NCBI GenBank assembly: GCA_964641355.1
Contig: CAZXND010000001.1
Coordinates: 11,869-75,868 of the forward strand
Reading direction: 5' to 3'
Length of the DNA stretch: 64,000 nucleotides
DNA from: an uncultured Gammaproteobacteria bacterium
GTDB lineage: Bacteria > Patescibacteriota > Microgenomatia > Levybacterales > GWA1-39-11
The translations under genes were made by a program, and so were the position numbers. Under the pieces are notes generated by a model. That model did not search any database. It was not told the origin of the DNA and was given only the letters and a program-made list of their open reading frames with translations. The stretch's first letter is position 1. Each line of letters begins with the position of its first letter. Below are positions 12,446 through 51,461 of the stretch, piece by piece.

Positions 12446-12766
12446 TATGATACTTTTTTTTGCATGAGTAAAAAGCGACGCACAAGGGATGAAAAAGTGT
12501 TCGCAGAGCTCAAGCGACAAGAGGGTGTGGGTCAATTTCAAGAAAAAAAATTTACCTACTCCTTTGGAAATGGAGTTGCAAATCCTTCTATTATTAACAC
12601 TAACGTCGACAGAATAACCTCCAAAAACTATTCATATATTAAAACCGAAATAAAACATACTATCTTTATAACTTCCCTTATTCTTATCTTAAATCTCGGG
12701 TTTTTCTTTTTAGAAAAAAAACTAAATACAGGAATTCCCGGATTTTAAGGAGGGAGGTGAAAGATT

Positions 12767-12910
12767 ATGGCAAGCATGTATTGTGTAAAATGTAGAGCAA
12801 AAAGAGACGACCCAAACGCAGAAAAGGTTACAATGAAGAATGGAAAACCAGCTTTGAAAGGAAAGTGTCCAGTTTGTGGAACAGCAATGTTCAAAATTGG
12901 AGCAGCGTAG
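12767..12910 (+). CDS. Small zinc-ribbon protein (DUF5679-like), 47 aa; not in the ORF track
   Basis: GGAGGGAGGTGA RBS 6 nt before the ATG; CxxC...CxxC (MASMYCVKCRAK...KCPVCGTAMF). Confidence 0.7.
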   Translation: MASMYCVKCRAKRDDPNAEKVTMKNGKPALKGKCPVCGTAMFKIGAA

Positions 12911-12995
12911 AGATTTGCTCTATTTAACAAAAACCTAATTCTAAATCCATTGGAAATAGATGAGGGTTTTTGTGTTGAATTAGAAACTAAAAAAA

Positions 12996-14549
12996 TTATT
13001 TGTCAGAATATTGTATTAATTTGTAAACTTTCACCACAGAAATATCCCACGAATTTACAACCTCTGCTCTTCCAAAACCCGCAATCTCCCAAAGAGGGTG
13101 ACCAAGAGGTTGGCAAGGAATAGATTCACATACTACGAAAAGCTGATTTGTAACACTTTCTCTCTTTGGATCTATGACGAGATTTTGAATATCAATAGGC
13201 TTATTTCCTTCCACTTCAAAAAAATAACGGTATGCATGATCCGAATTTCCCCCTGTAATAAGAGCGAAATTGAAAGGCTTATTTTCAGCCTTTTCAAGTA
13301 TAAACTCTGAAATTTTCTTGACTTGTCCTCTTTGATTATTCGGAAGAGAAAGAAAAGGAGCACCCAAAAGATTAAAAATAAATAGAAAAATGAAGATCGA
13401 AATAGACACTAACATTCCTAACCTTTTTAAGTGTTTTGAACCAAAAAGTTCTGACAAAAAATTTCCCACAAATAAAAAAGGGAGTGGAAACATAAATCCA
13501 AAATAATAATCATAGATATTTCTTTTGTACAAACCAAAAAGCAAAACACCTAAGATGAGCCAAGTTAGCATTAATATTACAGTGAGTCTATTTTTTATTC
13601 TTAAAATTGCCCAAATAGATGCGATCGCAAGAAAAACTGTAATTACCTGCCAAATTTTAAGATCCAAATGAGCTTCTATTGAAACCTGTTCTGGAGGAGG
13701 GAAGCGAGTAATTAATCTTGCAAAAAGTCTAAAAAAAACGTCACTCGCAATAGTAAGAATGGAAGTGTTTTTTTCTGGGCTAAAAGTGTTTGAAAATATA
13801 AAACCAAAAATTGTTCTTGTGTTGGGAAACCCATGCTTTAGTTCGAATGCTAGAAAAGGAGAAAATCCTATAACAAATCCCATAAAAATAGAAATGTATT
13901 TTTTCCCTAAGTCTAAAATCTCAACTTTTCTTTTTATATACAGCGTACCGAGAAAAATAAAAACAACGATTATTATTGCTAGGAAAACGGCTAAATAATG
14001 AAGCTGCATTGTAATTCCCAAAAGAATTCCCACAATGAAAAATAATTTTAACTTATTATTTTTAACTCCGAGATAAAGAAGAAAAAGGGATAAAATAGAA
14101 AAGAAAGGAACTGGATTAGGATTCCAAGAAGACCTAGAATATGCAATAACTATTGGAGATACCGAATACAAAGAAGCGGCAAAAAGCCCAGTTTTTTCGT
14201 CAAAAAGCTTCTTTCCTACAAGATAAATCAAAAAAACTGTTGCAACACCAAAAATGGCAATCATTATTGCTGGACCAACAGGATCAAGTTTTGTTAACCA
14301 AAGAAAAGGTGCAATAAAGTAATAATAAATGGGGCCTAAGAAAAAATCACCAGCAGAAGCTCTTGGACCAAGAAGGGTAAGCTTTCCCTCGAGAATATGC
14401 TTTGCCACAATAACATCTCTCCCTTCATCTCCTAAAAAAGTCATATATTCAGATATTCTAAAAAAACGAAGGAATGCCGCCAGGGTAATAATAATTCCTA
14501 CAAGAAAGAGGCCTATATTTTTTCTTTTTTGAGGTTCTGAGTTTTCCAT
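12996..14549 (-). CDS. Membrane glycosyltransferase of the ArnT/PMT superfamily (GT39/GT83-like)
   Basis: About 12 TM; N-terminal AAFLRFFRI...FLGDEGRD segment typical of the family. Confidence 0.7.
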   Translation of the reverse strand: MENSEPQKRKNIGLFLVGIIITLAAFLRFFRISEYMTFLGDEGRDVIVAKHILEGKLTLLGPRASAGDFFLGPIYYYFIAPFLWLTKLDPVGPAIMIAIFGVATVFLIYLVGKKLFDEKTGLFAASLYSVSPIVIAYSRSSWNPNPVPFFSILSLFLLYLGVKNNKLKLFFIVGILLGITMQLHYLAVFLAIIIVVFIFLGTLYIKRKVEILDLGKKYISIFMGFVIGFSPFLAFELKHGFPNTRTIFGFIFSNTFSPEKNTSILTIASDVFFRLFARLITRFPPPEQVSIEAHLDLKIWQVITVFLAIASIWAILRIKNRLTVILMLTWLILGVLLFGLYKRNIYDYYFGFMFPLPFLFVGNFLSELFGSKHLKRLGMLVSISIFIFLFIFNLLGAPFLSLPNNQRGQVKKISEFILEKAENKPFNFALITGGNSDHAYRYFFEVEGNKPIDIQNLVIDPKRESVTNQLFVVCESIPCQPLGHPLWEIAGFGRAEVVNSWDISVVKVYKLIQYSDK

Positions 14550-15715
14550 ATTATCTTATTATAAATGAAATAATTCAAAGGAATAACTACAAAAATAATC
14601 GTTGGAACAAGTACAAATATTCGCGTAACAAATGTGAATCCAAGTAATTTAAAACTTTCACCAAATAAAGAAACGAATATAAAAACCGATGAAAATTGAA
14701 TTACAACAGCAGCGATAGATGTTAGATTAAATTTAATAAACTTGGATAAAAAGTGAGGTGCTTCCCTTTCTTTTCTAGTATCACTAAATGTCCAAATATT
14801 ATTAAATGTGAAATTAGAAATAATGGCCGCCTCAGCACCAATTCCAGCTGCCCATGCGTCCCTTAGTGAGTCGCTTAATATAAGAACCGCAGGAATAACT
14901 AATAAAGCAAAGAGTTCTTGAACTAAAACTTGTATAATAAATCCTGAAACCCCAACGACTAAAAACTTTATAAATCTTTGTAATTCAATTACTCTTGCAA
15001 TAATTACATAATAAAGGACATCCATAATATATCCAAGAGGAGCGATTTTTGATTTACCAAGCGTTCTATCTGTGAAGTGGAAAGGAACTTCTCCAATTTT
15101 AAATCCATCTCTTACCGCTTTATGTAGAAATGAAATCTGGAAAATATATCCATTATAGTTTTCTAATTCTTTCTTTTCTTTTAAAAAAACTTCTTTTTTA
15201 AGAGCTCTATACCCACCAGTCCAATCATGAATATTAAATCTCATGAATACAGATCTTACAAAAAGATTGGCAATAATTGAAAAAGCTTTTCTTTGAGGTG
15301 GCCAATTTTTTGGAATGGATCCACCTTCACTATATCTTGTTCCAATTACCATATCGCTTCCCAAATCTATCTTTTTAAGAAACTCAGGTACCTTATTTGG
15401 ATCATGTTGCCCATCAGCATCCATTTCAAATAAAACGTCTGCCCCCATTTTTTCAACAGCATAAGACATAGCTCTAACATAAGCAGCTCCCAAACCCTTC
15501 TTCTCACCCAGGCTTACATCTATGTTTTTATATTTTTTTGCCAGATTTCTGACCACATCAACTGTCTTATCAGGAGAATTGTCATCGGCAACCAATATAG
15601 ACATTTCATAATTCTTAACTTGAGGAAAAATATCTTCTTCAAGTATATTAATTAGTTTTTCTATATTTTCACGTTCGTTATAAGTGGGTAAGATAATTAC
15701 TACTTTTTTAAGCAT
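14513..15715 (-). CDS. GT2 polyprenol-phosphate glycosyltransferase (DPM synthase-like) fused to a GtrA-like membrane domain
   Basis: ILPTYNERENI...VADDNSPD...EMDADGQHDP GT2 motifs; C-terminal 4-TM GtrA-like region. Confidence 0.8.
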   Translation of the reverse strand: MLKKVVIILPTYNERENIEKLINILEEDIFPQVKNYEMSILVADDNSPDKTVDVVRNLAKKYKNIDVSLGEKKGLGAAYVRAMSYAVEKMGADVLFEMDADGQHDPNKVPEFLKKIDLGSDMVIGTRYSEGGSIPKNWPPQRKAFSIIANLFVRSVFMRFNIHDWTGGYRALKKEVFLKEKKELENYNGYIFQISFLHKAVRDGFKIGEVPFHFTDRTLGKSKIAPLGYIMDVLYYVIIARVIELQRFIKFLVVGVSGFIIQVLVQELFALLVIPAVLILSDSLRDAWAAGIGAEAAIISNFTFNNIWTFSDTRKEREAPHFLSKFIKFNLTSIAAVVIQFSSVFIFVSLFGESFKLLGFTFVTRIFVLVPTIIFVVIPLNYFIYNKIIWKTQNLKKEKI

Positions 15716-16672
15716 TTATATATTTTTTTTATAATAATTTATTGTTTTTTCTAGTCCCTCTTCAATAACCACCTTCGGATCATAACCAAGGACTTTTTGA
15801 GCTTTTGATATATCCGGTCTTCTTTGATGGGGATCATCTGATGGCAACTCTTCATAAACAATTTCTGATTTTGAACCTGTTAAAGTCTTAATTATTGTAG
15901 CAAGCTGTGCTATTGTATATTCTTGCGGATTACCTAAGTTAACTATCTCCCCATTAATTCCATCGATTGTAGTAAGCTTGAAAATTCCATCAATCAGATC
16001 AGACACGTAGCAAAAGCTTCTAGTTTGATCACCCTTCCCATAAATTGTAATAGGAGCGTCAGACAATGCTTGATTAATAAAATTTGAAACTACCCTACCA
16101 TCCTCTTTAGACAGTCTTTCTCCGAATGTATTAAAAATCCTCATTATTCGTGTATCTAGACCAAAAGATCTGTTATAAGCGGCTGTGACTGCCTCCCCAA
16201 ATCTTTTCCCCTCATCATATACAGATCTAACACCGTTAGGATTTACATTTCCAAAATAATCTTCTTTTTGAGGTGAAACCATTGGATCTCCATAAACCTC
16301 AGAAGATGAAGCATATACAAATCTCGCTTTTTTTTCTTTTGCTAGATTTAAAAGATTATAAGTTCCAACACTATTAACTCTTAATGTTTCTATTGGGTGG
16401 TTTATATAACTATTCTTACTTTTCCTATTTGGAGAAGCAGGAGAAGCCATGTGAATAATTACATACAACTCTTCCGATAAATTTAATGGAGAAATAATAT
16501 CATGCTCGATAAATTTAAAATTGGAATTATCAACAAATGAGGAGAGGTTTTCCTTTTTTCCAGTAAGAAAGTTATCTAAGCCAATTACAAAATATCCTCC
16601 GCTTAAAAATTTTTCAGCAAGATGAGAACCCAGAAATCCTGCAACCCCAGTTATAAGAACATTATTTTTCAT
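15716..16672 (-). CDS. UDP-glucuronate decarboxylase (UDP-xylose synthase)-like SDR
   Basis: VLITGVAGFLGSHL...GLDNFLTGKKENL; YxxxK; UXS family pattern. Confidence 0.75.
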   Translation of the reverse strand: MKNNVLITGVAGFLGSHLAEKFLSGGYFVIGLDNFLTGKKENLSSFVDNSNFKFIEHDIISPLNLSEELYVIIHMASPASPNRKSKNSYINHPIETLRVNSVGTYNLLNLAKEKKARFVYASSSEVYGDPMVSPQKEDYFGNVNPNGVRSVYDEGKRFGEAVTAAYNRSFGLDTRIMRIFNTFGERLSKEDGRVVSNFINQALSDAPITIYGKGDQTRSFCYVSDLIDGIFKLTTIDGINGEIVNLGNPQEYTIAQLATIIKTLTGSKSEIVYEELPSDDPHQRRPDISKAQKVLGYDPKVVIEEGLEKTINYYKKNI

Positions 16673-40125: not shown

Positions 40126-40215
40126 GAAGTATATTTTGGATCAATGGTTTAATACAAAGTTAAACTTTAATTAAACAAGTTTATTTTATCATAATTTGAG
40201 CCTAAACTGAACTTT

Positions 40216-40244
40216 AAAAAACCCCTCACCAAAAGGTGAGGGGT
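40216..40244 (-). terminator. Intrinsic terminator/attenuator in the secA leader
   Basis: Minus strand reads CCCCTCACC-TTTT-GGTGAGGGG followed by TTTTTT. Confidence 0.75.
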
Positions 40245-40308
40245 TGAATACCTATTGATCAATTGGCATTCCGATTATCGGAAACCAATCCTAAAAAGAA
40301 ATCGAGAT

Positions 40309-40353
40309 TTATCTCTTCTTTCTTTTTGCTGCTTTCTTTCTTTTCTTTGCCAT
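40309..40353 (-). CDS. Tiny poly-basic upstream ORF (MAKKRKKAAKRKKR, 14 aa) in the secA leader
   Basis: AAAGGAGGTGA RBS 8 nt upstream of the ATG; TAA stop; TTGACA-like hexamer upstream. Confidence 0.4.
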   Translation of the reverse strand: MAKKRKKAAKRKKR

Positions 40354-40547
40354 GGACAGGTTCACCTCCTTTTTTCTTTTTCAAGAAATGAGATAATATT
40401 ATCGTGAATAAATTTAAAAAGAATGTCAAGAAATTTCATCAGCTTCAAAATTGTTAAATTGTTTTGTCATAACAACAATATTTATAACGTGAAAAGTTTA
40501 CTTTTTTATTACTAATACACTACAAAATGAGGCTAATCTAAAATTAA

Positions 40548-41822
40548 CTAAATCTTTTTTGGAGAAATTTTTTCAAATCCTGTATATTTTCTCAGAACCT
40601 CAGGAATTATGACAGTTCCATCTTCTTCTTGGTAGTTCTCAAGAATTGCAATCATTGTCCTTCCTACTGCAAACGCAGTTCCATTTAGAATATGGACAAA
40701 TTTTTTATTACCTTTATCATCGTATTTCGTGTTTAATCTTCTTGCTTGAAAATCGGTTGTTGTGGAAATTGAATGGGTTTCACGATATTTTTGTTGAGAC
40801 GGAATCCAAGTCTCTATATCAATAGTTTCGGCAGTTGGAAATGCGATATCCCCCGTTGCTAACTGGACAAGCTGGAAAGGAAGACCTAATTCTTTTAAGA
40901 GACTAGATGATATATCAAGCATTTTTTTTCTTTCTGATTCATCGTCTTCTTCTTTCACAAACTCAACCATTTCAACTTTGTCAAATTGATGAACACGAAA
41001 CATACCTCTTGTATCCTTACCGTACGTTCCTGCTTCACGACGAAAACAAGAAGAAAAGGCAACATATTTTTTCGGCAAATTACTAACTATTTCATCCATA
41101 TGCATGGGTACCAATGCATGCTCTCCTGTACCTATCAAGTAAAGAGGGTTATTGATTTTTTCTGTTTTGCTTATCTCTTCAAGGTCAGATACTAAATAGT
41201 AATTTTCATTTCCCCCACCCCTCCAATATCCAAGACCCTCGGTAATTCTTTGTTTTATAAGAACCGGGGGGAGGACGGGAGAAAATCCTTCACCAATAAG
41301 TTTTGACAAGGCAAAATTCACAAGGGCCAACTCTAAGATCACTCCTTCATTCTTTAGATAAATAAAACGAGAACCAGAAACTTTTGCAGCTCTACCAACA
41401 TCAATTATGTCAAGCAATTCTCCCAATTCTAAGTGATCCCGGACCTTAAAACTAAACTCTCTTGGCTCACCTTCTTTTCTAATTACTTTATTTTGAGATT
41501 CTCCTCCTACGGGAAGATGTGATAGTGGCAAGTTAGGTAGAGAAAGAAGAATTTCTTTTAGTTCTTTTTCATACTTTTTAAGCTCTTCCTCAAGACTTTT
41601 TAGCTCCTTCTTTATTTCTTGTCCGCGACTTATGGATTCGGGAGTTGCGTTTTTTGATATAGTGTTTCTTTCTTGTCTTAACTCTTCTACTCCCTTAAGG
41701 ATACTTCTCCATTTTTCATCTAAAAATAAAATCTTTTCAATGACTTCTGGATCTCCTCCTTTATTTTTTACTCCATTTCTAACTTCATCTGGACGTTCTC
41801 TAATAAGTTTTAGGTCTAACAT
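40548..41822 (-). CDS. serS: Seryl-tRNA synthetase
   Basis: N-terminal coiled coil plus class II core; SerRS length and motifs. Confidence 0.9.
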   Translation of the reverse strand: MLDLKLIRERPDEVRNGVKNKGGDPEVIEKILFLDEKWRSILKGVEELRQERNTISKNATPESISRGQEIKKELKSLEEELKKYEKELKEILLSLPNLPLSHLPVGGESQNKVIRKEGEPREFSFKVRDHLELGELLDIIDVGRAAKVSGSRFIYLKNEGVILELALVNFALSKLIGEGFSPVLPPVLIKQRITEGLGYWRGGGNENYYLVSDLEEISKTEKINNPLYLIGTGEHALVPMHMDEIVSNLPKKYVAFSSCFRREAGTYGKDTRGMFRVHQFDKVEMVEFVKEEDDESERKKMLDISSSLLKELGLPFQLVQLATGDIAFPTAETIDIETWIPSQQKYRETHSISTTTDFQARRLNTKYDDKGNKKFVHILNGTAFAVGRTMIAILENYQEEDGTVIIPEVLRKYTGFEKISPKKI

Positions 41823-41826
41823 TTTT

Positions 41827-42438
41827 TTACTTTAACTCCTTTTTAAGAATTAATTTTAATTTTTGCATAGCTTTATATCTGTGATTATACAACTTTTCCT
41901 CTTGTGGATTTAACTCACTTTCATGATAATATTTTTTAATCTCTGGTATATAAAAGAAAGATCTATATGGATAACCTTTTAACAGTTTCATAAAAGGCTT
42001 TTCCGCAATCACTCCCCTAATCTCTCCCTTTTCTTGAAAATATCTTCCATCGGGAAAAGCCAGAGTTATAACTGTCTTAAAAGAAGCACTACGATTATTA
42101 CTAGGGAGCTCTCTTGATACTTTTATCATATAATCTATTAATTCTTCGTCGCTAGATTCGTATCCCAACCATCTTCGACTCCTTATTCCAGGAGCACCGT
42201 CTAAAGCATCTATCTCAAGACCTCCATCGTCTGAAATGACGGGCATTTTAGAGGCTTTTGTATAATACAAAGCTTTTTTTAGAGAATTTTCTGCATAGGT
42301 ATTTCCATCTTCATCTACATCATCCATTATCCCGACATCTTTTAAAGAAAATAATTCAATTTCTGGCATATCAGAAAGAAAAAGTACAAATTCATGAAAT
42401 TTACCAACATTCTTTGTAGCAATTAACAATTTTTTCAT
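41827..42438 (-). CDS. rdgB: Non-canonical purine NTP pyrophosphatase (Ham1/RdgB)
   Basis: IATKNVGKFHEF (ATxNxGKxxE) motif. Confidence 0.8.
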   Translation of the reverse strand: MKKLLIATKNVGKFHEFVLFLSDMPEIELFSLKDVGIMDDVDEDGNTYAENSLKKALYYTKASKMPVISDDGGLEIDALDGAPGIRSRRWLGYESSDEELIDYMIKVSRELPSNNRSASFKTVITLAFPDGRYFQEKGEIRGVIAEKPFMKLLKGYPYRSFFYIPEIKKYYHESELNPQEEKLYNHRYKAMQKLKLILKKELK

Positions 42439-43953
42439 TTATACCTCTTCAAATCTTTTAATTACAAAATCTCTACTTAGTGAAAGAATTAACCAAGCAG
42501 CTTTTGGACCATGGTCTTTTCCAATAAGACTCGTATAAATAGCTGAATATGCATCTTTGGATAGTAAATCAAGTTCTTTTGCCCAAGTGTACATATTCGT
42601 TTGAAAATCTTCAGCATTCCAATCCTTATTTAATTCATTTGCAATTCTTCTGAGAAATTTTTTTTGCTGTTCACTCAAATTCGAAACATTCTCCGATAGC
42701 TCCTGTTGCACCATAAATTTGTCCTTTTCAGAAGCATATTTTTCCAACCATATTTTTGCATATTTGCCCCATTCTTCAGCACCAACTTTGTTAATTTCCT
42801 TTTCCATATTAGGCATTTGCACCCATTGTGAAATTGTTGAAAATCTAACATTAGGAGGAATCTTGATCTCACCCACTTGAGAAAGCTCGAATTCTCTTGC
42901 AAAATCGTCCCCTTTTTTCGAAAAATAAGCCTCTGCGGCTTTCTGATACTCATCAAAAAGTTTAGGAATAGTTTCTCCTTCGGGATCAAAATTTATAGCC
43001 TGGTTTATTTTAGTTTTCACCATAAGAAAACGTAGAATTTCAGGAGGAAGAATATCAAGCATTTCGCTCGCTGAGGAGCCTCTTCCTTTGGATGAAGACA
43101 TTTTCTTACCTCCAACCAAAAAAAACTCGTAAGCAACCGGTTGTGGTACTGGATAACTTATCACTCTTTCACAAATCAAACTCGCTAAATCGTGTGATCC
43201 TCCCTTACTCATGTGGTCCTTACCAGCCCCCTCGACGGTAACACCAATAACCTTCCACTTAGCCGGCCATTCAACTTTCCAAGGTAACTTTCCTGAAATG
43301 TTACCATCAGAGCTAAAGGGAGATATTCTTCCCTCATGGCCACAACCCTTCACCCAATTTAAACCGTCAATTTTACAAATATATGAAACTTTTTCGCCAT
43401 CCCAAGCATTCACTTTTGTAGTTGAAACCTTGTCACAATTTTCACAATAAACCTGAAACGGAAACCAATCAGAAGGAATTTCTTTTTTATATAACTCCGA
43501 ATAGATTTTTCTTATCTCACTTACTTTATCAAGACATTCACGGATCACATCGTTCATTCTTCCACTTCCATAAAGATCTGTTGACCAAATAATCTCAGGC
43601 TCACAGTCTAGTGCATTAAAAACTTTTTTGAAATCAAGAGCAAAATATTCAGCATAATTTTTAAACCCAGGTTGTGGAGATGGAACTTTATAAAGAGGCA
43701 CTCCTAGATATTTATCAAACTCTTTTGGAAGATAAACTGGTAAATCATCCATGGGATCATGATCGTCAAAAACATAGGTATACTTAGCATTTATTCCAGC
43801 ATTTTTTAGCGATTTATATATCAGATCGTGAATAACCACTCCGCGTAGAGAACCAACATGAATCCTTCCTGAAGGAGTTTTCATGTCGTCCACCCATTCT
43901 AAGGGGAGATTTCTTTCCTTTAATTTTTGAGCAACTTGGTCAGACCAATACAT
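42439..43953 (-). CDS. lysK: Class I lysyl-tRNA synthetase (archaeal type)
   Basis: TPSGRIHVGSLRG (HIGH region), FDDHDPMDDLP and KMSSSKG (KMSKS) motifs; about 500 aa. Confidence 0.8.
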   Translation of the reverse strand: MYWSDQVAQKLKERNLPLEWVDDMKTPSGRIHVGSLRGVVIHDLIYKSLKNAGINAKYTYVFDDHDPMDDLPVYLPKEFDKYLGVPLYKVPSPQPGFKNYAEYFALDFKKVFNALDCEPEIIWSTDLYGSGRMNDVIRECLDKVSEIRKIYSELYKKEIPSDWFPFQVYCENCDKVSTTKVNAWDGEKVSYICKIDGLNWVKGCGHEGRISPFSSDGNISGKLPWKVEWPAKWKVIGVTVEGAGKDHMSKGGSHDLASLICERVISYPVPQPVAYEFFLVGGKKMSSSKGRGSSASEMLDILPPEILRFLMVKTKINQAINFDPEGETIPKLFDEYQKAAEAYFSKKGDDFAREFELSQVGEIKIPPNVRFSTISQWVQMPNMEKEINKVGAEEWGKYAKIWLEKYASEKDKFMVQQELSENVSNLSEQQKKFLRRIANELNKDWNAEDFQTNMYTWAKELDLLSKDAYSAIYTSLIGKDHGPKAAWLILSLSRDFVIKRFEEV

Positions 43954-43958
43954 AACCT

Positions 43959-45068
43959 TTACTCATTATACAATCGAATTATGTCTTTATATACCTGCTC
44001 AGTTTTTTCTAATGAATTAAGATCAAGCCACTCCTCTTTTGTGTGACCTCCTCCACCAATGGGTCCCAAACTTATCACTGGAATATTTAAACGATTAGCA
44101 AAAATATTTTCGTCTGCAACAGAAGAAGCATAAGTTGGTTTTACTTTATTTTTATCAAAAATTTCTTTTTCCAAAATTTTTAGAAATTTATTGTCCCTAT
44201 TTATCTCATAAGATTCACCGTATGGCGTATCTCTTTCTACAGGACGGCAATTTACTTCAATATTATTTTCTTTTGCGGTTGATAGAATTTTTTCTTTTAC
44301 AGATTCACTTGTTATTCCCGGTGTTGTTAAAACTGAAAAAGTAATAACACACTTATCAGGCGTTGAAAAAGATGTAGTGTCAGAATGAATAGACTGTAGT
44401 ACAATTTTTACACTATCTAAAAATTCATGCTTTGGGAAATTTATACTTGATAAGATTTTGATAAACCTTGCAGCCTCATTAATAGCATTTACTCCTTTTT
44501 CTTCTTCTGCAGCATGTGCTTTTTTTCCAGTTACCGTAGCTTGGAAAAGTATTCTTCCTTTTCTTCCATAGCAAACATTAAAAGGCTGATTTAAGTCTTT
44601 TATTTGGCCGCTTTCTCCAGAAATAAGGAAATTAATATTGTTTAAAATCCCTGAGTCGACTAAGTCGTGCGCCCCTCGAGATATCTGTTCCTCATCAACA
44701 CCAAAAATAAGTTGTAAGGGATATTTATTTTCTACAGCAAACTCTGCGGCCTTAAGAATAGCAGCAATTGCACCTTTCATATCTTCAACTCCCAATCCGT
44801 ATGCCTTTTTTCCATCTATTTCTAGTTTTAAAGGGTCGCGCTCACTTTTCTCATCCATATGTACAGTATCCATGTGACCATAAAAGGATAGGTAACTAGA
44901 GGATTTACCAAAACGAGCAACTATATTACTCCTATTTCCTTGAGTTAATACCTTCTCAACTTTAAAACCAATTGAAATTAAATGTTCAGAAATAAATCTA
45001 GAAATTTTTTCTTCTGAAGATGTTGAATCGATGTCGATCAATTTTTTTATTAATTCTATTGTTTTCAT
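43959..45068 (-). CDS. M20-family metallopeptidase/deacylase (ArgE/DapE-like)
   Basis: YGHMDTVH, GVEDMKGAIAA, GGGHTKEE motifs. Confidence 0.8.
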   Translation of the reverse strand: MKTIELIKKLIDIDSTSSEEKISRFISEHLISIGFKVEKVLTQGNRSNIVARFGKSSSYLSFYGHMDTVHMDEKSERDPLKLEIDGKKAYGLGVEDMKGAIAAILKAAEFAVENKYPLQLIFGVDEEQISRGAHDLVDSGILNNINFLISGESGQIKDLNQPFNVCYGRKGRILFQATVTGKKAHAAEEEKGVNAINEAARFIKILSSINFPKHEFLDSVKIVLQSIHSDTTSFSTPDKCVITFSVLTTPGITSESVKEKILSTAKENNIEVNCRPVERDTPYGESYEINRDNKFLKILEKEIFDKNKVKPTYASSVADENIFANRLNIPVISLGPIGGGGHTKEEWLDLNSLEKTEQVYKDIIRLYNE

Positions 45069-46477
45069 TATGGGCGAAACCTAACCTTTCTTTTTTCCAT
45101 TTCTTTTACTATCTCGTTGCATCGCTCTTCGCTCTTTCCCATAATAAGCACCTTAAAGTTAGGAGATGGAATGATGTTTTTTCTCGTAACTAACGTTCTA
45201 AATGCTTGAGGAATAACTAAGCCTTGTTCTATGTTACCATATGCCAAATCTTCTCCTATAACTTCTACGTAATCCGAAATTGTTTGTATTGGTTTATCAG
45301 TATATACGTTTGTATTTATCCAATTCTCCGCTCCTAATTTTGTAGCGACAATATATGGAGGAGTATTTGCTGTAGGGCGAGAGTTGAGTTCTACCACGTA
45401 CACAGACTCTTTCCCTTGATCATCCCTTATAAGAAACCAGTCTACGCCTTGTACACCGAAATACTCATTAGATTCTGTACTATAATTTGCAACTTTCTGA
45501 ACTTGATCATCAACTAAAAGTTTTGAGCCGTTTTTTGGCCGAAAGGGGCGATTCCCAAGATATTCACCTTCGTCAGTAGTAATTTGATCGAAATAACCAA
45601 TGATTTCTGGCATTCCCGATCTGCTCGTAATAAACTGAGTACTACCATTTATAACAACTTCTCCCAAGTTTCTCGCATCACTCTCTATAACTATTCCAAA
45701 ACCGAGAGGTGAAAATGAGTCCCTTGGCCAAAGTTCTTCAATTTTTCTACCAAAAGATCCTTTAAATAGGGCTCTTTCTATCGAACTTCGAATCTCCGAT
45801 ATCCCACTTAAAACTTCATCTGTAGTAACAAAAGGAATACGCTTTACTAAATCCCCCCCCGATCCAGTAGGAAATTTAAGCCAGACTCCATATTCTGTGC
45901 TTGAAAACTGTTGAACTAGTGTTTCCACATCTTCTAGAGATCGCATAGTGGCTCCTGGAAGCATTTGAAATCCAAACCTAACTGCAGACTCTCTTAACTC
46001 TTCTTTATTATTAGTTATCGCACTATCCCTTCGATTAATCGTTTCTATGTTTAGTGCTCTCTGTTGTCTACTTACTCCATCGTTAGAAAAAGTAGGTACT
46101 AAATACATGGGGTTGTCTGAATTTTCAATTTTCACCCTTCCCGATAAGGATTCGAGAGGATCTGTTGCGGGATATCCATAAGTAACCTCCCCGTTTAGAT
46201 CAGGTTCAACTTCAATTATGTGCGAATCTTGAGGAATTAAACCATGTCGAGAATAATACTCATATAATCCTTCTATGAGGTTGTTGCAAATAACCGTTTC
46301 ACCGCTGCTTATTGCTGGTACCGCAGTGTTTCTTAGATACCAATCTCCATCGGGAAATGGTAAAGCTAACTTATGGTCAGGGTTAACATAATTTAAAGTC
46401 ACGAATGGCTCGCCCTCCAAATTGTTACTTCTTAGGGCAGTGTGACCTAATGAAACTCCACTTTCAACTTTTGTCAT
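45068..46477 (-). CDS. ATP-grasp domain enzyme (carboxylate-amine ligase-like), 469 aa
   Basis: VWLKFPTGSGGDLVKR and VVELNSRP ATP-grasp-like motifs; composition differs from flanking genes. Confidence 0.5.
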   Translation of the reverse strand: MTKVESGVSLGHTALRSNNLEGEPFVTLNYVNPDHKLALPFPDGDWYLRNTAVPAISSGETVICNNLIEGLYEYYSRHGLIPQDSHIIEVEPDLNGEVTYGYPATDPLESLSGRVKIENSDNPMYLVPTFSNDGVSRQQRALNIETINRRDSAITNNKEELRESAVRFGFQMLPGATMRSLEDVETLVQQFSSTEYGVWLKFPTGSGGDLVKRIPFVTTDEVLSGISEIRSSIERALFKGSFGRKIEELWPRDSFSPLGFGIVIESDARNLGEVVINGSTQFITSRSGMPEIIGYFDQITTDEGEYLGNRPFRPKNGSKLLVDDQVQKVANYSTESNEYFGVQGVDWFLIRDDQGKESVYVVELNSRPTANTPPYIVATKLGAENWINTNVYTDKPIQTISDYVEVIGEDLAYGNIEQGLVIPQAFRTLVTRKNIIPSPNFKVLIMGKSEERCNEIVKEMEKRKVRFRP

Positions 46478-46624
46478 AAAAATAAAAAAACCCCTATTTT
46501 GGGGCTATATTTTGACACCAAAAAAGCCCTCTAATTAAAGAGTGTGCTTCTTGGATTTTACAGAATTAAAATTCAATATCATTTTTCAGATATTAGCATG
46601 TATATTATACCTTGTCAAATTAAG

Positions 46625-48133
46625 TTATCTATCTTTTACGGGAGGGAAAAGTATTATATCGCGGATGTGAGGCGTATTAGTAAGAATCATGGCCATTCTA
46701 TCAATGGATATCCCTATTCCAGCCATTGGGGGAAATCCATATTCCATAGCTGTTAAAAAGTCTTCGTCTACTTCCATTGCCTCTTTATCTCCTTCAAGTT
46801 TTCTTTGTCTTTGATCTTCAAACCTAGCTCGTTGATCTCTAGGATCATTCAATTCTGAATAGCAATTCATGACCTCGAATCCACCAATATAACATTCGAA
46901 TCTTTCAACTAAATTAGGATTATTTCTGTGCCTTTTTGTTAGAGGACTTGTTTCATGAGGATAGTCCATTACAAAAGTTGGCTGAGTAAATTTACCATCG
47001 TAATACTCTTCAAAAAGAGCAAGTAAAAGATCTCCTCTTTGCTGGCTATGTTTTGGATTTATATTTAGACCATCGGCTATTTTGTATAAATCCTTATCGA
47101 TTACTGTTTCTGGATCAAAACCATAAGCCTCTTTTAGACCTTCATAGATTGTCACTCTCTTCCAAGGAGCTTTAAAATCAATAACGTGTCCATTATATTC
47201 AACTTGCGTTGTTCCATGTATGTCTTGTGCTACTCTCTCAAAGATTGTTTCTGCCATCTCAAGCATTTCTAAATAATCTGAGTAAGGTTTATAAAGTTCT
47301 ACAGCGGTAAATTCAGGATTATGTGTCCTATCCATTCCTTCATTTCTAAAGTTTCTGGAAAATTCAAATACCGGTCCCATATTCCCACAAACAAGGCGTT
47401 TTAGATAAAGCTCATTTGCTAATCTTAAATACATGTCTTGATCTAAGGCATTAAAATGGGTAATAAATGGTTTTGCGTTTGCGCCTCCGTAAGTATTATC
47501 AAGAACTGGAGTCTCCACTTCTAAAAATCCGTACCCCAAGAACTCATCTCTCATTATTTGAGTCATTCTAGCTCTTGTTCTAAATCTTTCACGAGCGTTT
47601 GGATTTGTCATAAGTTCAAGATATCTTTGCCTCCTTGCAAGCTCGGGATCTTCAACTCCTCCTCTTCTAATTAAAGGTGGCGGAAGCAAAGCTTTAGCAA
47701 GCATTGTCAATTCTTGTGCTTTTATTGTTATTTCACCGGTTTTAGTTCTAAAAACCTCTCCTTGAGCATTCACAAAATCACCGGTATCGTAGTTATCGGC
47801 TATTAGAATAAATTTCTCGTCTTCTGGCCCGTTTTTCTTAAGATAAACCTGAACTTTTCCCGTAGTATCTTCTACATCGTAAAAAATAGATTTTCCCATC
47901 TCTCTTCGACCTACGATTCGACCAACCACACTTACCCTTCTTTCTTCTAGTGAATCAAACTCCGATGCTATTGCTCCGGCTGTGTGAGTTATCAAAGGAG
48001 GTTCAACGGGATATGCATTTATTCCAGCAGCTTCGAGATTTTGAAGGTGGTTAAGTCTTGAATTTCTACCAGTATTTCTCTCTTGTTGTATGGGTGAATC
48101 TTGTGGCTGAGGCGGCCCTTCTTTCCTTATCAT
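46625..48133 (-). CDS. lysS: Class II lysyl-tRNA synthetase (full length, with N-terminal anticodon-binding OB domain)
   Basis: RLNHLQNLEAAGINAYP, VSVVGRIVGRREMGK, FRNEGMDRTHNPEFTAVE (motif 2); about 500 aa. Confidence 0.9.
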   Translation of the reverse strand: MIRKEGPPQPQDSPIQQERNTGRNSRLNHLQNLEAAGINAYPVEPPLITHTAGAIASEFDSLEERRVSVVGRIVGRREMGKSIFYDVEDTTGKVQVYLKKNGPEDEKFILIADNYDTGDFVNAQGEVFRTKTGEITIKAQELTMLAKALLPPPLIRRGGVEDPELARRQRYLELMTNPNARERFRTRARMTQIMRDEFLGYGFLEVETPVLDNTYGGANAKPFITHFNALDQDMYLRLANELYLKRLVCGNMGPVFEFSRNFRNEGMDRTHNPEFTAVELYKPYSDYLEMLEMAETIFERVAQDIHGTTQVEYNGHVIDFKAPWKRVTIYEGLKEAYGFDPETVIDKDLYKIADGLNINPKHSQQRGDLLLALFEEYYDGKFTQPTFVMDYPHETSPLTKRHRNNPNLVERFECYIGGFEVMNCYSELNDPRDQRARFEDQRQRKLEGDKEAMEVDEDFLTAMEYGFPPMAGIGISIDRMAMILTNTPHIRDIILFPPVKDR

Positions 48134-48135
48134 TT

Positions 48136-48759
48136 TTACTTGAAAGCAACAAGTACCAATTCACCATCGAGTACTCTTTTTGTATATACGTTGCCCTCTG
48201 TAGAATCTAAGTCTTCCGGGTTATAAAAAGAATGTTGACCATTAATCACTACGTTTCCTTCAGGTGTAGCTTGTAGATTAAACCTCTGTTGAGTCCCTAA
48301 AACTACAACAGAAGAATCCGGTGGCAATACTTTTCCAAAATCCATATTTAAAGCTTCAAGAAGACTTGCTGGTCTAAGGTTTTCCGGAAGGTCTTCTGCA
48401 AACTCTTCTGGTGTTTTTCTTCCAGTTGCCTCAACAACTTTTACCCAAGAAGGGGATGGCAGCCAATAAGGAGAGTTCTCAGGAAATCTATAAACACCAC
48501 TACCAACATCTACTCCCTGAAGTTTTATCTGATCAGAGATAGGAACCAATGGATCAACGATAACAAGACTCGCTCCATCTGATAAGTGCGGGGATCTTAT
48601 TGCTTCTGAAATCGCAGGGCCGAATCGATCTATATAATCACCAAGGGACATACCTAATGAAGAATGATACCCAATAAGAGTTTTTCTATCTATTTGCGCT
48701 TCGCAGAGTGCGCGCACTTGTATTGCTGAGTCAGTTGGTGTTAAAGATTCTCCAGTCAT
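48136..48759 (-). CDS. Hypothetical soluble protein translationally coupled to lysS
   Basis: ORF stop lies 2 nt before the lysS start; no recognisable domain; GC-richer composition. Confidence 0.4.
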   Translation of the reverse strand: MTGESLTPTDSAIQVRALCEAQIDRKTLIGYHSSLGMSLGDYIDRFGPAISEAIRSPHLSDGASLVIVDPLVPISDQIKLQGVDVGSGVYRFPENSPYWLPSPSWVKVVEATGRKTPEEFAEDLPENLRPASLLEALNMDFGKVLPPDSSVVVLGTQQRFNLQATPEGNVVINGQHSFYNPEDLDSTEGNVYTKRVLDGELVLVAFK

Positions 48760-48844
48760 AAGTCATATATAGCTACTTAAATTAAGTAAAATACTCGTTT
48801 TGCTGGGATTTTAGCACTCGAAACATATGTTGTCAAATAATAGT

Positions 48845-49822
48845 TTACTCTCTAACTACTGTTGTTCCTCTGAATGTTGGATTAAAAGTATTTTTGACCC
48901 TCAAGACAATTTCAGTACCAAATAAGGGCTCGAGCGTTCTGTAGTGCAATACCTTAGCACCGTTTTTAGCCATTCTATCAGCTTCAATATAGGTTAATCT
49001 GTCAATAATATGCGCATTAGAATTATATCGTGGATCAGAAGTAAATACACCATCAACATCTGTCCATATCCATACTTCTTTTGCCCCCAACAGTCTTCCA
49101 ATAAATGATGCTGAAAAATCAGATCCTCCCCTGCCTAAAGTTGTAACTCTTCCGTCCTGAGTCGATCCTAAAAATCCAGTTATTACTGGCGTGACTCCTT
49201 TTCTCAATAGTGGATTAACTATTTGCTCAGCTTTTTCTTCACTCAATAGAACATCTGGTTTAGCTTCTCCAAATAAGTTGTCAGTCTTTATTATTTCCGA
49301 TGATGAAACAACTTCTGACCTAATTCCCTCCTGATTAAGCTTAGCGCTTATAAGTCTTACACTCATCCTTTCACCATACGAAAGAATCCTGTCCTTTTTT
49401 TCTGCATCTGATAATCCAATGGAATTAATATCTCTTCTTAAACCAATGAATAGTTCTCTTAACTCGTTGACAAGAGACGTTCTTATTTGTAAGGAAAGTT
49501 TCAATTGGCTGGCCGCAGTTAAATGAATATCAAATATAGTCCTTAACTCTCTGTCTTTTCTAGAAATATCCCCTATATCGGCGTCACAAATTGCTACTAA
49601 ACGGTTTGTAATACCTGACATTGCTGAAGCAACAACTACTACAGCTTGCCCATCTTTGACATGAGATTTTACAATTTGACTAACTCTTTCTATTTGGGAA
49701 CCTCCTCCTACTGATGTCCCACCAAATTTCATCACATAAATGCTTCTATTTTTTTCTACCTCATTTTTTCGTAAACCTTCTAAACAATTGTGCCCGTTCT
49801 CAATTTTTCCCATTTTTGCCAA
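48845..49822 (-). CDS. Aspartokinase catalytic core lacking C-terminal ACT domains (true start probably at the internal MKFGGTSV)
   Basis: VMKFGGTSVGG and TTLGRGGSDFSA amino-acid-kinase motifs; only about 295-325 aa. Confidence 0.7.
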   Translation of the reverse strand: MAKMGKIENGHNCLEGLRKNEVEKNRSIYVMKFGGTSVGGGSQIERVSQIVKSHVKDGQAVVVVASAMSGITNRLVAICDADIGDISRKDRELRTIFDIHLTAASQLKLSLQIRTSLVNELRELFIGLRRDINSIGLSDAEKKDRILSYGERMSVRLISAKLNQEGIRSEVVSSSEIIKTDNLFGEAKPDVLLSEEKAEQIVNPLLRKGVTPVITGFLGSTQDGRVTTLGRGGSDFSASFIGRLLGAKEVWIWTDVDGVFTSDPRYNSNAHIIDRLTYIEADRMAKNGAKVLHYRTLEPLFGTEIVLRVKNTFNPTFRGTTVVRE

Positions 49823-49823
49823 T

Positions 49824-49844
49824 AAAAAACCCCTCCTTGAGGGG
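49824..49844 (-). terminator. Intrinsic terminator (second of a tandem pair downstream of greA)
   Basis: Minus strand reads CCCCTCAAGGAGGGG hairpin followed by TTTTTT. Confidence 0.7.
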
Positions 49845-49860
49845 CTTCTCTAAGTTTTTT

Positions 49861-49891
49861 TAACAAAGAATCAAACCCCTTGATGAAGGGT
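49861..49891 (-). terminator. Intrinsic terminator of greA
   Basis: Minus strand reads CCCCTTCATCAAGGGG hairpin followed by TTTGATTCTTTGTT. Confidence 0.55.
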
Positions 49892-49952
49892 TGTCTTTGT
49901 CTTTGATTCAAAACGATTTTCTTTGTTCATATTGCTTATAATAACCCATCCC

Positions 49953-50420
49953 TTAGTGGATTTCAACGATTGTGTAAAGTACTTTTCCTGCCGGTGCTTC
50001 CACCTCAACCTTTTCCCCAACAGCACGACCGATCAATGCTTTTCCAAGAGGAGATTCATGTGAAATCTTCTTTGCCTGGGGATCTGCTTCCCACTCTCCA
50101 ACTAACGTAAACTTTTCTTTCTTACCTGAAACTGAAAGCGTAACAGATGACCCGAGTTCTATGCTTTTTGAACCGTTAGTTTTTTCTTGAATTAAAGTTG
50201 CATTCTTTAGAAGCTCAGAAAGCTCTTCTATTCTTCCGTCAATTAGAGATAGCTCTTCACGCGCTGCTGTGTATTCTGAATTTTCTGCAAGATCTCCCAT
50301 TGCTCTAGCTTGAGAAACACGTTCTAAGACTTCAGGTCTTTTTACCTTGCTTAATTCCTCAAATTCCTTTTTTAACTCTTCAAGTCCTTCTTTCGTTACA
50401 AAAATTTGTTTTTTATCCAT
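49953..50420 (-). CDS. greA: Transcription elongation factor GreA
   Basis: N-terminal coiled coil (GDLAENSEY) plus C-terminal FKBP-like domain; 155 aa. Confidence 0.9.
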   Translation of the reverse strand: MDKKQIFVTKEGLEELKKEFEELSKVKRPEVLERVSQARAMGDLAENSEYTAAREELSLIDGRIEELSELLKNATLIQEKTNGSKSIELGSSVTLSVSGKKEKFTLVGEWEADPQAKKISHESPLGKALIGRAVGEKVEVEAPAGKVLYTIVEIH

Positions 50421-50615: not shown

Positions 50616-51461
50616 CTAAGCTGGTTTTTCGAAATCCAACCTTATAAAGTACTTATTTAAAACTACCTTACTATTATCTCTTGGATGAAACCAAGCAAAG
50701 TTTTTATCAATTTTTTCACTTGTAATTTTTTTTGACATATATTTCTTTTCAAGAAAATAAAAAATATTATCAACAAAATTCATCACTTTGTTTATTCTAG
50801 CTTTTTTATGTGAAATTTCTGGCATATTGTAATTTGCCATATATTCAATAATCCACTGATTTTTTGAAATAAATCTTTCATAGATCTTCTCCTTATTTAT
50901 AACTGGCAAAATTTGGGATATTTCTTTTGCAATAAATAGATTATGTTCTTCTATTAAAATCGACCCTTCATCAAGAAACATATTTACACAAATTTTATCT
51001 CGAATTTTTTTTCCTCTAAATTTTCTTTTTTTGTTAAATAAAAATAATATTGAAAGAATCAAAAATCTAGAAAACCAAATTGTGTTTTTTCTGCAGATTA
51101 CAAATAAATCCAGGTCGTCATTTTTTTTAGCATTACCAACTGAAACACTTCCACTGATAGCAATTAACCTGATCGTAGGAATATACCCTAAAATTTTTAT
51201 TAGACCAATATTTTTAGTTATTTTATTATTACTTTCCTTTTCTCGATTTATTCTCAAACCAACTATCCTTTCTCTTTCCTGCAAGAAATAAAAAATTCCT
51301 TTTTTCCTGATTTCTTTGCTACTGCCCAAAACACTTTTAATTGTCTTTTTGGAAATTTTTCTATTGGTGATTAAAAATTTGTGAATTTCGTTAAGGGTAA
51401 GAGGAAAGTCAAATATATCTGAGTAAGTAAGAGTCGAAAGGATTCTCTCTTCTATCGACAT
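50616..51461 (-). CDS. Hypothetical protein with polymerase-beta-type nucleotidyltransferase motif
   Basis: ISGSVSVGNAKKNDDLDLFVI (GS...DxD) motif; very AT-rich. Confidence 0.4.
   Translation of the reverse strand: MSIEERILSTLTYSDIFDFPLTLNEIHKFLITNRKISKKTIKSVLGSSKEIRKKGIFYFLQERERIVGLRINREKESNNKITKNIGLIKILGYIPTIRLIAISGSVSVGNAKKNDDLDLFVICRKNTIWFSRFLILSILFLFNKKRKFRGKKIRDKICVNMFLDEGSILIEEHNLFIAKEISQILPVINKEKIYERFISKNQWIIEYMANYNMPEISHKKARINKVMNFVDNIFYFLEKKYMSKKITSEKIDKNFAWFHPRDNSKVVLNKYFIRLDFEKPA

Follow-up and report, generated by a model that had tools for sequence, protein, structure and literature searches.

We analysed a 64-kb stretch of genomic DNA (the window) from a Levybacteria-like bacterium of the Microgenomates, within the candidate phyla radiation (CPR; Patescibacteria), in which two lysyl-tRNA synthetase (LysRS) genes of different classes lie within a single locus. 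The class I gene (lysK) and the class II gene (lysS) are separated by 2671 bp, in agreement with the spacing of about 2.7 kb given in a first-pass annotation of the sequence. The locus, annotated here from 40.5 to 50.4 kb, has all of its genes on the minus strand and holds, besides the two synthetase genes, an aspartokinase gene, an open reading frame (ORF) of 207 codons, an ATP-grasp ligase gene and an M20 deacylase gene, placed between the backbone genes greA and secA. Two intact LysRS enzymes of different classes coexist at this locus—both predicted to be competent for tRNA charging—and two short Lys-rich leader ORFs, each accompanied by a pair of hairpins, precede the kinase gene and the ligase gene.

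The class assignment of both synthetases agreed with the first-pass annotation. The class I enzyme was checked by signature motifs and full-length alignment: it carries TPSGRIHVGSLRG, FDDHDPMDDLP and KMSSSKG, scores 362.9 bits on TIGR00467 (lysS_arch; cut-off 147.55) with residues 1-502 covered, and aligns end to end with the LysRS of P. horikoshii (1irx, residues 3-519), with HVGS and KMSSS present. The class II enzyme is complete, with an OB domain and the motif FRNEGMDRTHNPEF, and reaches 521.8 bits on TIGR00499 (lysS_bact; cut-off 427.6) in addition to matches to PF01336 and PF00152. In an alignment with E. coli LysU, 14 of the 15 residues of the lysine/ATP pocket are identical (G216, E240, R262, E264, H270, N271, F274, E278, Y280, E414, E421, N424, E428 and R480); the remaining one, F426, is replaced by Tyr, as it is in all canonical class II LysRS compared except that of L027 (related loci are cited by number throughout). 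A possible loss of catalytic residues in the class II copy, raised at the outset, was not found: the pocket is canonical and the gene is intact.

The 207-aa gene immediately precedes class II lysS, its stop codon lying 2 nt before the lysS ATG. Directly 5' of this gene there is a promoter-like match (TTGACA-17-TAAAAT with an extended-10 TG, 11/12 matches), and promoter-like sequences containing TTGAC also stand 5' of the 207-aa gene in L022, L024, L035 and L036. No attenuator match was obtained before the 207-aa-lysS unit with the covariance model described below. A word-indexed homologue search with the 207-aa protein returned only the protein itself, an exhaustive HMMER search yielded 25 representatives, and in each of the six loci that contain the family, among them those of Daviesbacteria (L035) and an ACD_30C-like genome (L036), a family hidden Markov model (HMM) matched the ORF 5' of class II lysS. 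The protein has no Pfam match, and its fold is without a neighbour in the PDB. By these comparisons, the 207-aa protein is a new family and a conserved upstream partner of Microgenomates class II lysS, and it may work specifically with the main class II LysRS. The idea that it substitutes for the missing ACT domains of the aspartokinase (see below) was considered and rejected, as the protein travels with lysS and not with the kinase, whose gene has a different place in L024 and L036 and did not turn up in the L035 locus retrieved. As a separate observation, a giant protein (P0179, 2254 aa) contains seven stretches that resemble the central beta-rich part of the 207-aa family (residues 85-173), indicating that this sub-domain also exists as a repeat module.

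The three remaining enzymes of the locus could be assigned at different levels of detail. The aspartokinase core recognised in the first-pass annotation was recovered with 168 bits on AA_kinase, 281.8 bits on TIGR00657 (cut-off 208.7) and 204 bits against the M. jannaschii aspartokinase (3c1m), with the motifs KFGGTS, GER, LGRGGSD, WTDVDGV and GAKVLH. The protein ends after the catalytic domain, at about position 300 of the 468 positions of the profile, and ACT domains are absent; orthologues of the same ACT-less type, 317-354 aa long, occur in L022, L023, L024 and L036. The ligase has an ATP-grasp fold nearest to the LdmS/PGM1/BesA structural subgroup, with conserved Lys and Glu-x-Asn-x-Arg nucleotide and Mg sites, and on these features it is an amino-acid or peptide ligase; its identity to characterised LdmS/PGM1/BesA members is 13-16%, and it scores 21.9 bits on the LdmS equivalog HMM (cut-off 475). 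The M20 enzyme, in which the M20 fold and the dimerisation domain are certain, looks like an ArgE/DapE-type metallo-deacylase: its best score is 151 bits on TIGR01910 (cut-off 217.6), and every DapE, ArgE and LysK model stayed below its equivalog cut-off. Membership of ligase, kinase and M20 enzyme in a LysX/LysZ/LysK-type (LysW) pathway was considered and not adopted.

The two leaders share a common architecture. The two hairpin and T-run structures that the first-pass annotation had placed between greA and the kinase gene are present, and they correspond to the hairpins of the kinase leader (attenuator 1), whose ORF encodes MNKENRFESKTKTTLHQGV followed by a stop. The T-run of its terminator ends 8 nt before the kinase ATG, the predicted antiterminator duplex has an energy of -12.8 kcal/mol (z = -3.55), and the covariance model matches with 92 bits. 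The leader of the ligase operon (attenuator 2; covariance-model match of 72 bits) encodes MILNFNSVKSKKHTL and a stop; here, the stretch of Lys codons, CCAAGAAG, forms the 5' arm of hairpin 1, the 3' flank is CTTTTTTGG, and the T-run abuts the ATP-grasp ATG. Both ORFs are Lys-rich and comprise 15-19 codons. A promoter-like -10 box stops some 7 nt short of the leader ATG at 46582 and 49930 in the window, at 8144 in L023 and at 11516 in L035—a distance so short that the leader ORFs may be translated from leaderless or nearly leaderless transcripts. Moreover, the ligase and kinase genes of the window are without an obvious Shine-Dalgarno sequence after the terminator T-run. In searches with known RNA families, no Rfam model reached its gathering score in the window, and neither a T-box nor an L-box had E < 1 within 40-51 kb.

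Homologous leaders were found 5' of the ligase genes of L006, L007, L008, L009, L011, L015, L019 and L027, 5' of an unrelated ATP-grasp gene in L023, and 5' of five of five ACT-less kinase genes; typical peptides, each ending in a stop, are MNFVNTFAKKAKKPLS, MNLQLTTKKTKKSLF, MKNLHLGNKSKKQTLY, MNISFETKTKKTTLR and MNNFGKTTKKTAKTLF. All 15 leaders contain an ATG-started ORF of 14-26 codons with 2-5 Lys codons, the frame and the stop position being conserved. An equally good ORF arose in 0.3-5% of shuffles per leader, so that about 0.25 would be expected against the 15 observed. Lys makes up 19.9% of the leader residues versus 8.2% in the proteins of the window (p = 1e-9), and AAA/AAG triplets number 54 in the ORF frame versus 23 and 26 in the other frames. 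Terminator energies range from -9 to -19 kcal/mol and the T-runs stop 4-27 nt short of the gene start; the consensus consists of two hairpins with compensatory changes in four pairs. To evaluate antitermination, the RNA that would be freed by a ribosome at the last Lys codon was paired with the 5' arm and loop of the terminator and compared with shuffled controls; of the 14 leaders that could be evaluated, 13 gave a better pairing than the shuffles (z = -0.55 to -3.7; duplexes of -7 to -15.5 kcal/mol), and in L007, L015 and L027 complements of 10 bp could be recognised by eye (GCCGUAGCGC with GCGCUACGGC). Since the pairing register differs between leaders, a column-wise covariation count is unsuited for the antiterminator.

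A covariance model built from eight leaders, including both leaders of the window, found two sites only in the 64-kb window. Over 482 kb, it returned four new matches at E < 1e-3, all within the same gene cluster: the kinase leader of L022, the ligase leader of L008, a site in L024 before a 218-aa gene, and a site in L035 that precedes a GNAT-like/epimerase/M20 operon and encodes the peptide MLRRNLNLTKKTAKEPFK with a stop codon.

Three transcription units lie between greA and secA, namely the kinase gene; the 207-aa gene with class II lysS; and ligase-M20-lysK-rdgB-serS. The tight packing noted earlier for the M20-lysK-rdgB-serS genes holds (intergenic spacing of 0-5 nt), a scan from 46477 to 40548 revealed no intergenic terminator, and rdgB and serS are probably distal genes of the ligase-M20-lysK operon. 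The coordinates of all features are collected in the table below, together with the amino acid identities to the proteins of two syntenic loci.

Features of the LysRS locus and its surroundings in window coordinates, with identities to the window's proteins in loci L023 and L024
Feature	Positions	Strand	Description	L023 (%)	L024 (%)
SBP				54	48
u281	50616-51461	minus	281-aa backbone gene		
greA	49953-50420	minus	upstream backbone gene; Pfam and NCBIfam GreA	79	65
Promoter-like site for kinase leader	49938-49966		TTGAAA-17-TATTAT; overlaps greA 3' end		
Kinase leader (attenuator 1)	49814-49930	minus	between greA and kinase gene		
Leader ORF of attenuator 1	49871-49930	minus			
Hairpin 1 of attenuator 1	49874-49892	minus			
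Terminator of attenuator 1	about 49830-49845	minus			
Aspartokinase	48845-49813	minus	322 aa	55	51
Promoter-like match	48808-48836	minus	5' of 207-aa gene		
207-aa ORF	48136-48759	minus	no Pfam match		
Class II lysS	46625-48133	minus	OB domain and class II core	56	57
Ligase-operon leader (attenuator 2)	46478-46625	minus	after class II lysS stop codon		
Promoter-like sites of attenuator 2	46590-46618				
Leader ORF of attenuator 2	46535-46582	minus			
Terminator of attenuator 2	46489-46506	minus			
ATP-grasp ligase	45068-46477	minus	469 aa; opening gene of predicted attenuated operon		
M20 deacylase	43959-45068	minus	start overlaps ligase stop codon; Peptidase_M20 and M20_dimer		
Class I lysK	42439-43953	minus	gene 3 of predicted attenuated operon; slot before rdgB		
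rdgB	41827-42438	minus	0 nt after lysK		
serS	40548-41822	minus	4 nt after rdgB	58	53
serS-secA gap	40126-40547		weak Rfam matches at 40213-40425 (minus)		
secA			next after serS, beyond a 422-nt gap	77	68
Aspartate--tRNA(Asn) ligase	986-2341	minus	archaeal-type, non-discriminating		

To place the locus in its lineage, genomic contexts were assembled from exact-protein look-ups and from genome and metagenome scans, and the loci were annotated with the window's proteins. The family of the 469-aa ligase has about 45 members, one of them named Candidatus Levybacteria. A backbone with the order VanW, SBP, u281, greA, variable stretch, ATP-grasp, M20, LysRS, rdgB, serS, secA emerged, overlapping parts of which are found in L006, L008, L019, L020, L023 and L024; SBP-u281-greA is common to the window, L008, L019, L023 and L024, and L006 shares u281-greA. 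The M20 gene directly follows the ATP-grasp gene in 13 distinct related loci, with a LysRS gene next in most of them, and this recurrent block shows that the ATP-grasp gene belongs with these genes and not with those upstream. The trio of kinase, 207-aa gene and class II lysS has the same order in L022 and L023, the kinase gene being inverted in L024, and in L023 and L024 the trio sits on the greA...serS-secA backbone. Elsewhere in the lineage, lysS is variously accompanied by homoserine dehydrogenase, LysE, decarboxylases of the LysA-like and Orn/Lys/Arg types, an MR_MLE dipeptide-epimerase-like protein, a protein that faintly matches DAP epimerase, and proteins with weak similarity to GNAT enzymes, each scoring below the Pfam threshold; throughout Microgenomates, the surroundings of lysS centre on lysine. 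The backbone gene u281 is itself unusual in its extreme AT-richness (GC content of 0.262, Lys/Ile/Asn 36%); its one family match, to Polbeta nucleotidyltransferases, is weak and below threshold, and it adjoins greA also in L006, L008, L019, L023 and L024.

Among named proteins, those nearest to the class II LysRS come from Patescibacteria (62% identity), Woesebacteria (54%), Daviesbacteria (53%), ACD_30C (53%) and Levybacteria (52%), while the identity to Bacteroidota enzymes is about 47%. In a neighbour-joining tree—a rough one, without support values—the class II enzymes linked to the trio form one clade beside ordinary Microgenomates LysRS, and class II enzymes adjoining the ligase/M20 genes fall into separate, more divergent clades. 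Divergence of the two synthetases and of the kinase has kept pace with that of the backbone, pointing to vertical descent (see table for the individual genes): in the one direct comparison, with L024, lysK is 49% identical, versus 53% for serS and 48% for SBP, and across relatives the class I LysRS are 49-64% and the M20 enzymes 51-56% identical. On the strength of these comparisons, both LysRS genes appear to be vertically inherited, and a foreign island is not supported. Within Microgenomates, the pairing of the 207-aa gene with class II lysS is the ancestral layout, and the main LysRS, also the ancestral one, is probably that of class II; if either enzyme is a lineage-specific addition, the class I LysRS is the likelier candidate.

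The position before rdgB behaves as a slot that is occupied by a LysRS of either class. After the ligase/M20 pair, a class I enzyme follows in the window and in L006, L008, L012 and L019, and a class II enzyme in L009/L029, L020 and L030, as well as on the opposite strand in L027. In L023, the slot region contains a different ATP-grasp gene, a divergent M20 gene and then a class II enzyme; L024 is without this ligase and M20, yet a class I LysRS gene occupies the slot. In the latter locus, lysK is preceded (12684-15757) by genes for a Formyl_trans_N protein, an amidohydrolase of the histone-deacetylase family and a 317-aa protein, a further case in which an enzyme of the acyl-transfer type accompanies a deacylase at this place. 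Altogether, two LysRS genes occur at the locus in four genomes: the window, L012 and L024 combine the two classes, and L023 has a pair of class II genes.

Several slot enzymes depart from the ordinary pattern. The class I LysRS of L006 (12528-14798), L008 (12647-14893) and L012 (7295-9577) are about 750 aa long; a scan of those of L006 and L008 identified a C-terminal B3_4 domain (a PheRS-beta editing-type fold), and the L012 enzyme, with 761 aa, is of like length. The class I enzymes of the window (504 aa) and L024 (496 aa) have no C-terminal extension. We know of no previous description of a LysRS-B3_4 fusion, and the extension may add a tRNA-binding or editing function. Class II LysRS-like genes with an altered pocket were also found near ligase/M20 genes in L023 (14178-15671), L017 (19437-21392, minus strand) and L020 (1706-3172): N271 is changed to F, Y and L, N424 to D, D and K, and F426 to W, W and F, respectively, with E414Q and R480L in addition in L020. 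To judge from these substitutions, the three genes may no longer encode ordinary LysRS; in L023, the altered copy coexists with a canonical class II LysRS. Finally, the metagenome-assembled genome records L012, L017 and L020, titled uncultured Gammaproteobacteria, and L016, titled Candidatus Micrarchaeota archaeon, contain the CPR-type ligase-M20 cluster, accompanied by a LysRS gene in L012, L017 and L020, and L012 and L020 have backbone genes in common with Levybacteria-like genomes; the taxonomic titles of all four records look unreliable.

The interpretation we favour, with a probability of roughly 60%, is that of a vertically inherited lysine locus in which the class II LysRS is constitutive whereas the class I LysRS, the kinase and the ligase/M20 pair are attenuated. 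The two leaders would act as Lys-codon attenuators. When charged tRNA-Lys is scarce, ribosomes would stall on the Lys codons in the 5' arm of hairpin 1; the 3' arm of this hairpin, freed in this way, would pair with the 5' arm of the terminator, and transcription would read through, so that the cell would make more kinase, more ligase and deacylase, and more of a second LysRS of the other class. When Lys-tRNA is plentiful, translation would run to the stop codon, which lies in or next to hairpin 1; the terminator would form and transcription would end just before the structural gene. The class I LysRS would be co-induced in this manner with enzymes of lysine supply, while the class II LysRS, on a plain sigma-70-like promoter, would be expressed constitutively, and the two synthetases would divide the labour between them. 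With a kinase that has no allosteric ACT domain, control would be exerted at the level of transcription. The simplest reading of a ligase/M20 pair that is co-regulated with this kinase is that the two enzymes form part of lysine supply, by biosynthesis or salvage, and they are probably lysine-supply enzymes. The first-pass annotation had suggested a specialised or stress-phase role for the second synthetase: this option is the one we favour too, applied to the class I copy and not to the class II copy.

Several points weigh against this interpretation. No terminator separates the kinase gene from the 207-aa gene, so that read-through at attenuator 1 may raise class II lysS as well, blurring the split between constitutive and induced enzymes. 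The essential gene serS lies behind an attenuator, which calls for basal read-through or an internal promoter. For attenuator 2 the antiterminator is weak, with some 5 bp besides A-U pairs and a z of -1.5, and simple folding of the ligase leader with a stalled ribosome gave an ambiguous outcome, the terminator being lost for one of three Lys codons. The antiterminator is unsupported in L022, no clear Lys-rich leader ORF is present in L012, L013, L017 and L030, and the combined p-values, such as the Fisher value of about 7e-8 for the antiterminators, overstate independence because the leaders are related. The attenuator assignment as a whole is a prediction from sequence, and a scan of 20 other proteins of the window found none of asd, dapA, dapB, dapF and lysA. 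As for the history of the two synthetases, relatives with a single-class slot, which were viewed at the locus, may carry a second LysRS gene elsewhere.

A very different origin had been proposed in the first-pass annotation, according to which the genes from kinase to ATP-grasp make up a lysine island of foreign composition, acquired recently and bringing with it a specialised class II LysRS. The compositional signal behind this idea is real, although smaller than described. With a GC content of 0.376, the segment 45069-49822 is indeed the most GC-rich stretch of 4.75 kb in the window (mean of the others 0.341, standard deviation 0.008, maximum 0.362; z = 4.5) and also the most deviant in tetranucleotide use, but the excess amounts to 3.5 points and not to about 10. 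Its proteins are poor in Lys, Ile and Asn, as had been stated (0.12-0.19 versus about 0.2-0.28), and this explains why the GC excess is confined to codon positions 1 and 2; the GC content at third codon positions (GC3) is native, with 0.245-0.279 inside against 0.15-0.34 in the rest of the window. Orthologues in relatives—kinase, 207-aa protein and lysS of L022, L023, L024 and L036, the 207-aa protein and lysS of L035, and lysS of L012—likewise contain few Lys, Ile and Asn and exceed the GC content of their own loci by 0.006 to 0.054, so that the signal belongs to the gene families and is not a mark of transfer. Gene content between greA and the ligase does vary among relatives, as an island would allow. 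Against this, Microgenomates supply the nearest relatives of the class II LysRS, the trio keeps its syntenic place in L023 and L024 with a divergence like that of housekeeping genes, and neither an integrase (among the Pfam-scanned genes around the stretch) nor a tRNA gene (in the window) was found. The proposed boundary fails as well: the strong terminator at 46489-46506 parts class II lysS from the ATP-grasp gene, which synteny places with the M20 gene and the slot LysRS, here lysK. The gene order itself proved common and vertically inherited in the lineage, an outcome that had been named beforehand as refuting the acquisition reading. What stands of the proposal is that the partners of the class II enzyme are lysine-related, and they are conserved across relatives; that they form an acquired module is largely refuted, and we regard a recent transfer as very improbable.

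The other explanations concern the roles of the two synthetases and the nature of the leaders. A non-orthologous displacement in progress, with a redundant LysRS pair and no stable division of labour, would fit a slot whose LysRS class differs from relative to relative, as well as loci such as L006, L008 and L019 that show only a class I gene within 10 kb, and LysRS displacement is frequent in prokaryote evolution (PMC5388404). We nevertheless judge it unlikely, as both genes persist in the window, L012, L023 and L024 although orthologues are only 49-79% identical, the active sites of both enzymes are intact, and their upstream control regions differ in a way that is itself conserved. Still less probable is a non-ribosomal role for one LysRS, such as the supply of Lys-tRNA to a transferase, the charging of a special tRNA or the activation of a lysine analogue. 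Special tRNAs have a precedent in the tRNA-Other of B. cereus, a LysRS-like gene is tied to the ligase/deacylase pair whatever its class, weakly GNAT-like proteins (below Pfam thresholds) follow lysS in L022, L035 and L012, and the altered pockets of L023, L017 and L020 and the B3_4 fusions of L006 and L008 point in the same direction. In the window, however, both enzymes are canonical and an ATP-dependent ligase occupies the position of the GNAT-like gene; a linked special tRNA is unsupported, since no tRNA gene was found in the window or in 15 related loci, and a Lys-codon attenuator follows the logic of amino-acid supply and translation. Finally, the double hairpins might be ordinary tandem intrinsic terminators and the Lys-rich ORFs a by-product of the A-tracts of bidirectional terminators: both copies in the window lie just downstream of gene ends (greA and class II lysS), an A-tract and a U-tract give hairpin 1 the look of a bidirectional terminator, and these genomes are A-rich. 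This would be surprising for a motif that the covariance model places at two sites in 64 kb with dozens of gene ends, and it would leave unexplained the ORF, ATG, frame and stop conserved in 15 leaders as well as the two-fold AAA/AAG enrichment restricted to the ORF frame. In L012, moreover, the upstream gene is divergently transcribed, so that the hairpins cannot terminate it, and a promoter-like -10 box stands 7 nt before the leader ATG in several loci. We accordingly give this explanation low odds.

A broader, more tentative version of the attenuated lysine locus is conceivable, in which the leaders define a Lys-tRNA-sensing regulon of Microgenomates comprising the ACT-less kinase, a novel route of lysine supply and a slot LysRS of either class. 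Such a route would combine an M20 deacylase with an amide-forming enzyme that can be exchanged, be it an LdmS-like ATP-grasp ligase, a different ATP-grasp or a protein of GNAT-like type, and it could replace the DapD/DapE branch, in ATP- or acyl-dependent form, or salvage lysine from peptides. In practical terms, the leaders flag unannotated lysine-supply gene candidates—ligase, M20 and GNAT-like—and the 207-aa family, which has no such leader, is flagged by lying next to lysS.

Two further features of the window deserve mention. A third class II synthetase of the D/K/N type, near its beginning, is no LysRS; it is a non-discriminating aspartate--tRNA(Asn) ligase of the archaeal type (NF003483, 465 bits against a cut-off of 353); its presence suggests a tRNA-dependent route to Asn-tRNA in this organism. 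The gap between serS and secA, in turn, gave weak, sub-threshold Rfam matches to rli42 (31 bits, E = 8e-4), anti-hemB and a PyrR site, and it may hold an unclassified structured leader for secA.

CPR organisms are thought to be largely auxotrophic, and to our knowledge almost nothing is known about gene regulation in these bacteria. In full-text searches on LysRS, CPR and lysine leader peptides we found no report of dual LysRS in CPR bacteria, and, as far as the searched literature shows, the leaders appear to be an undescribed cis-regulatory motif in this group. The closest likeness in mechanism is to the classical leader-peptide attenuators of the enterobacterial trp, his, thr, leu and pheST operons, with which the predicted elements share an ORF rich in the regulating codon, a putative 1:2, 2:3 and 3:4 pairing scheme and a terminator immediately before the first structural gene, as well as the type of target—a biosynthetic kinase (compare thrA) and a synthetase operon (compare pheST). 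They would differ in responding to lysine, and they differ in their CPR host, in a -10 box only about 7 nt from the ATG and in having 2-5 Lys codons instead of a long run. A leader with Lys codons reportedly also precedes a lysine gene cluster in Thermus thermophilus. The enzymes have looser parallels. In the LysW pathway, the same three superfamilies (ATP-grasp LysX, kinase LysZ and M20 enzyme LysK) are tied to lysine. The two-gene hmrA/ldmS operon of S. aureus pairs an ATP-grasp ligase with an M20D dipeptidase and is linked to methionine metabolism (PMC9486568), but the identity is 16%, the M20 enzyme of the window is ArgE/DapE-like and not M20D, and the link to lysine comes from the gene neighbourhood only.

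With respect to the pair of synthetases, B. cereus is the only well-studied dual-class case that we are aware of. Both LysRS classes were present in 39 of 2588 genomes (PMC5388404), and LysRS genes regulated by a T-box were always accompanied by a second, unregulated LysRS gene (PMC2916919). In B. cereus and B. thuringiensis, the class I gene stands behind a Lys-tRNA-responsive leader and the class II gene does not, an arrangement like the one predicted here; the regulated lysK is treated there as ancillary and linked to nutritional downshift (PMC2916919). The differences are that a T-box, which senses uncharged tRNA-Lys, takes the place of the predicted leader-peptide attenuator in these species, whereas in the CPR host the two genes lie 2.7 kb apart in one conserved locus, with lysK predicted to be co-transcribed with the ligase, deacylase, rdgB and serS genes. 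Clostridium beijerinckii has two class II LysRS, one of them under T-box control (PMC2916919), which parallels the second class II enzyme in the slot of L023, although the regulatory mechanism is another one and the L023 slot copy has altered pocket residues. Homologous T-boxes of about 50% identity precede class I genes in Bacillus and class II genes in Clostridium (PMC2916919), and a regulated slot that likewise holds either class, here with a different sensor, looks like convergent selection for an inducible back-up LysRS. Read against these systems, the locus appears to represent the known pattern of a main and an ancillary LysRS, combined with a newly recognised pair of putative lysine leader-peptide attenuators.

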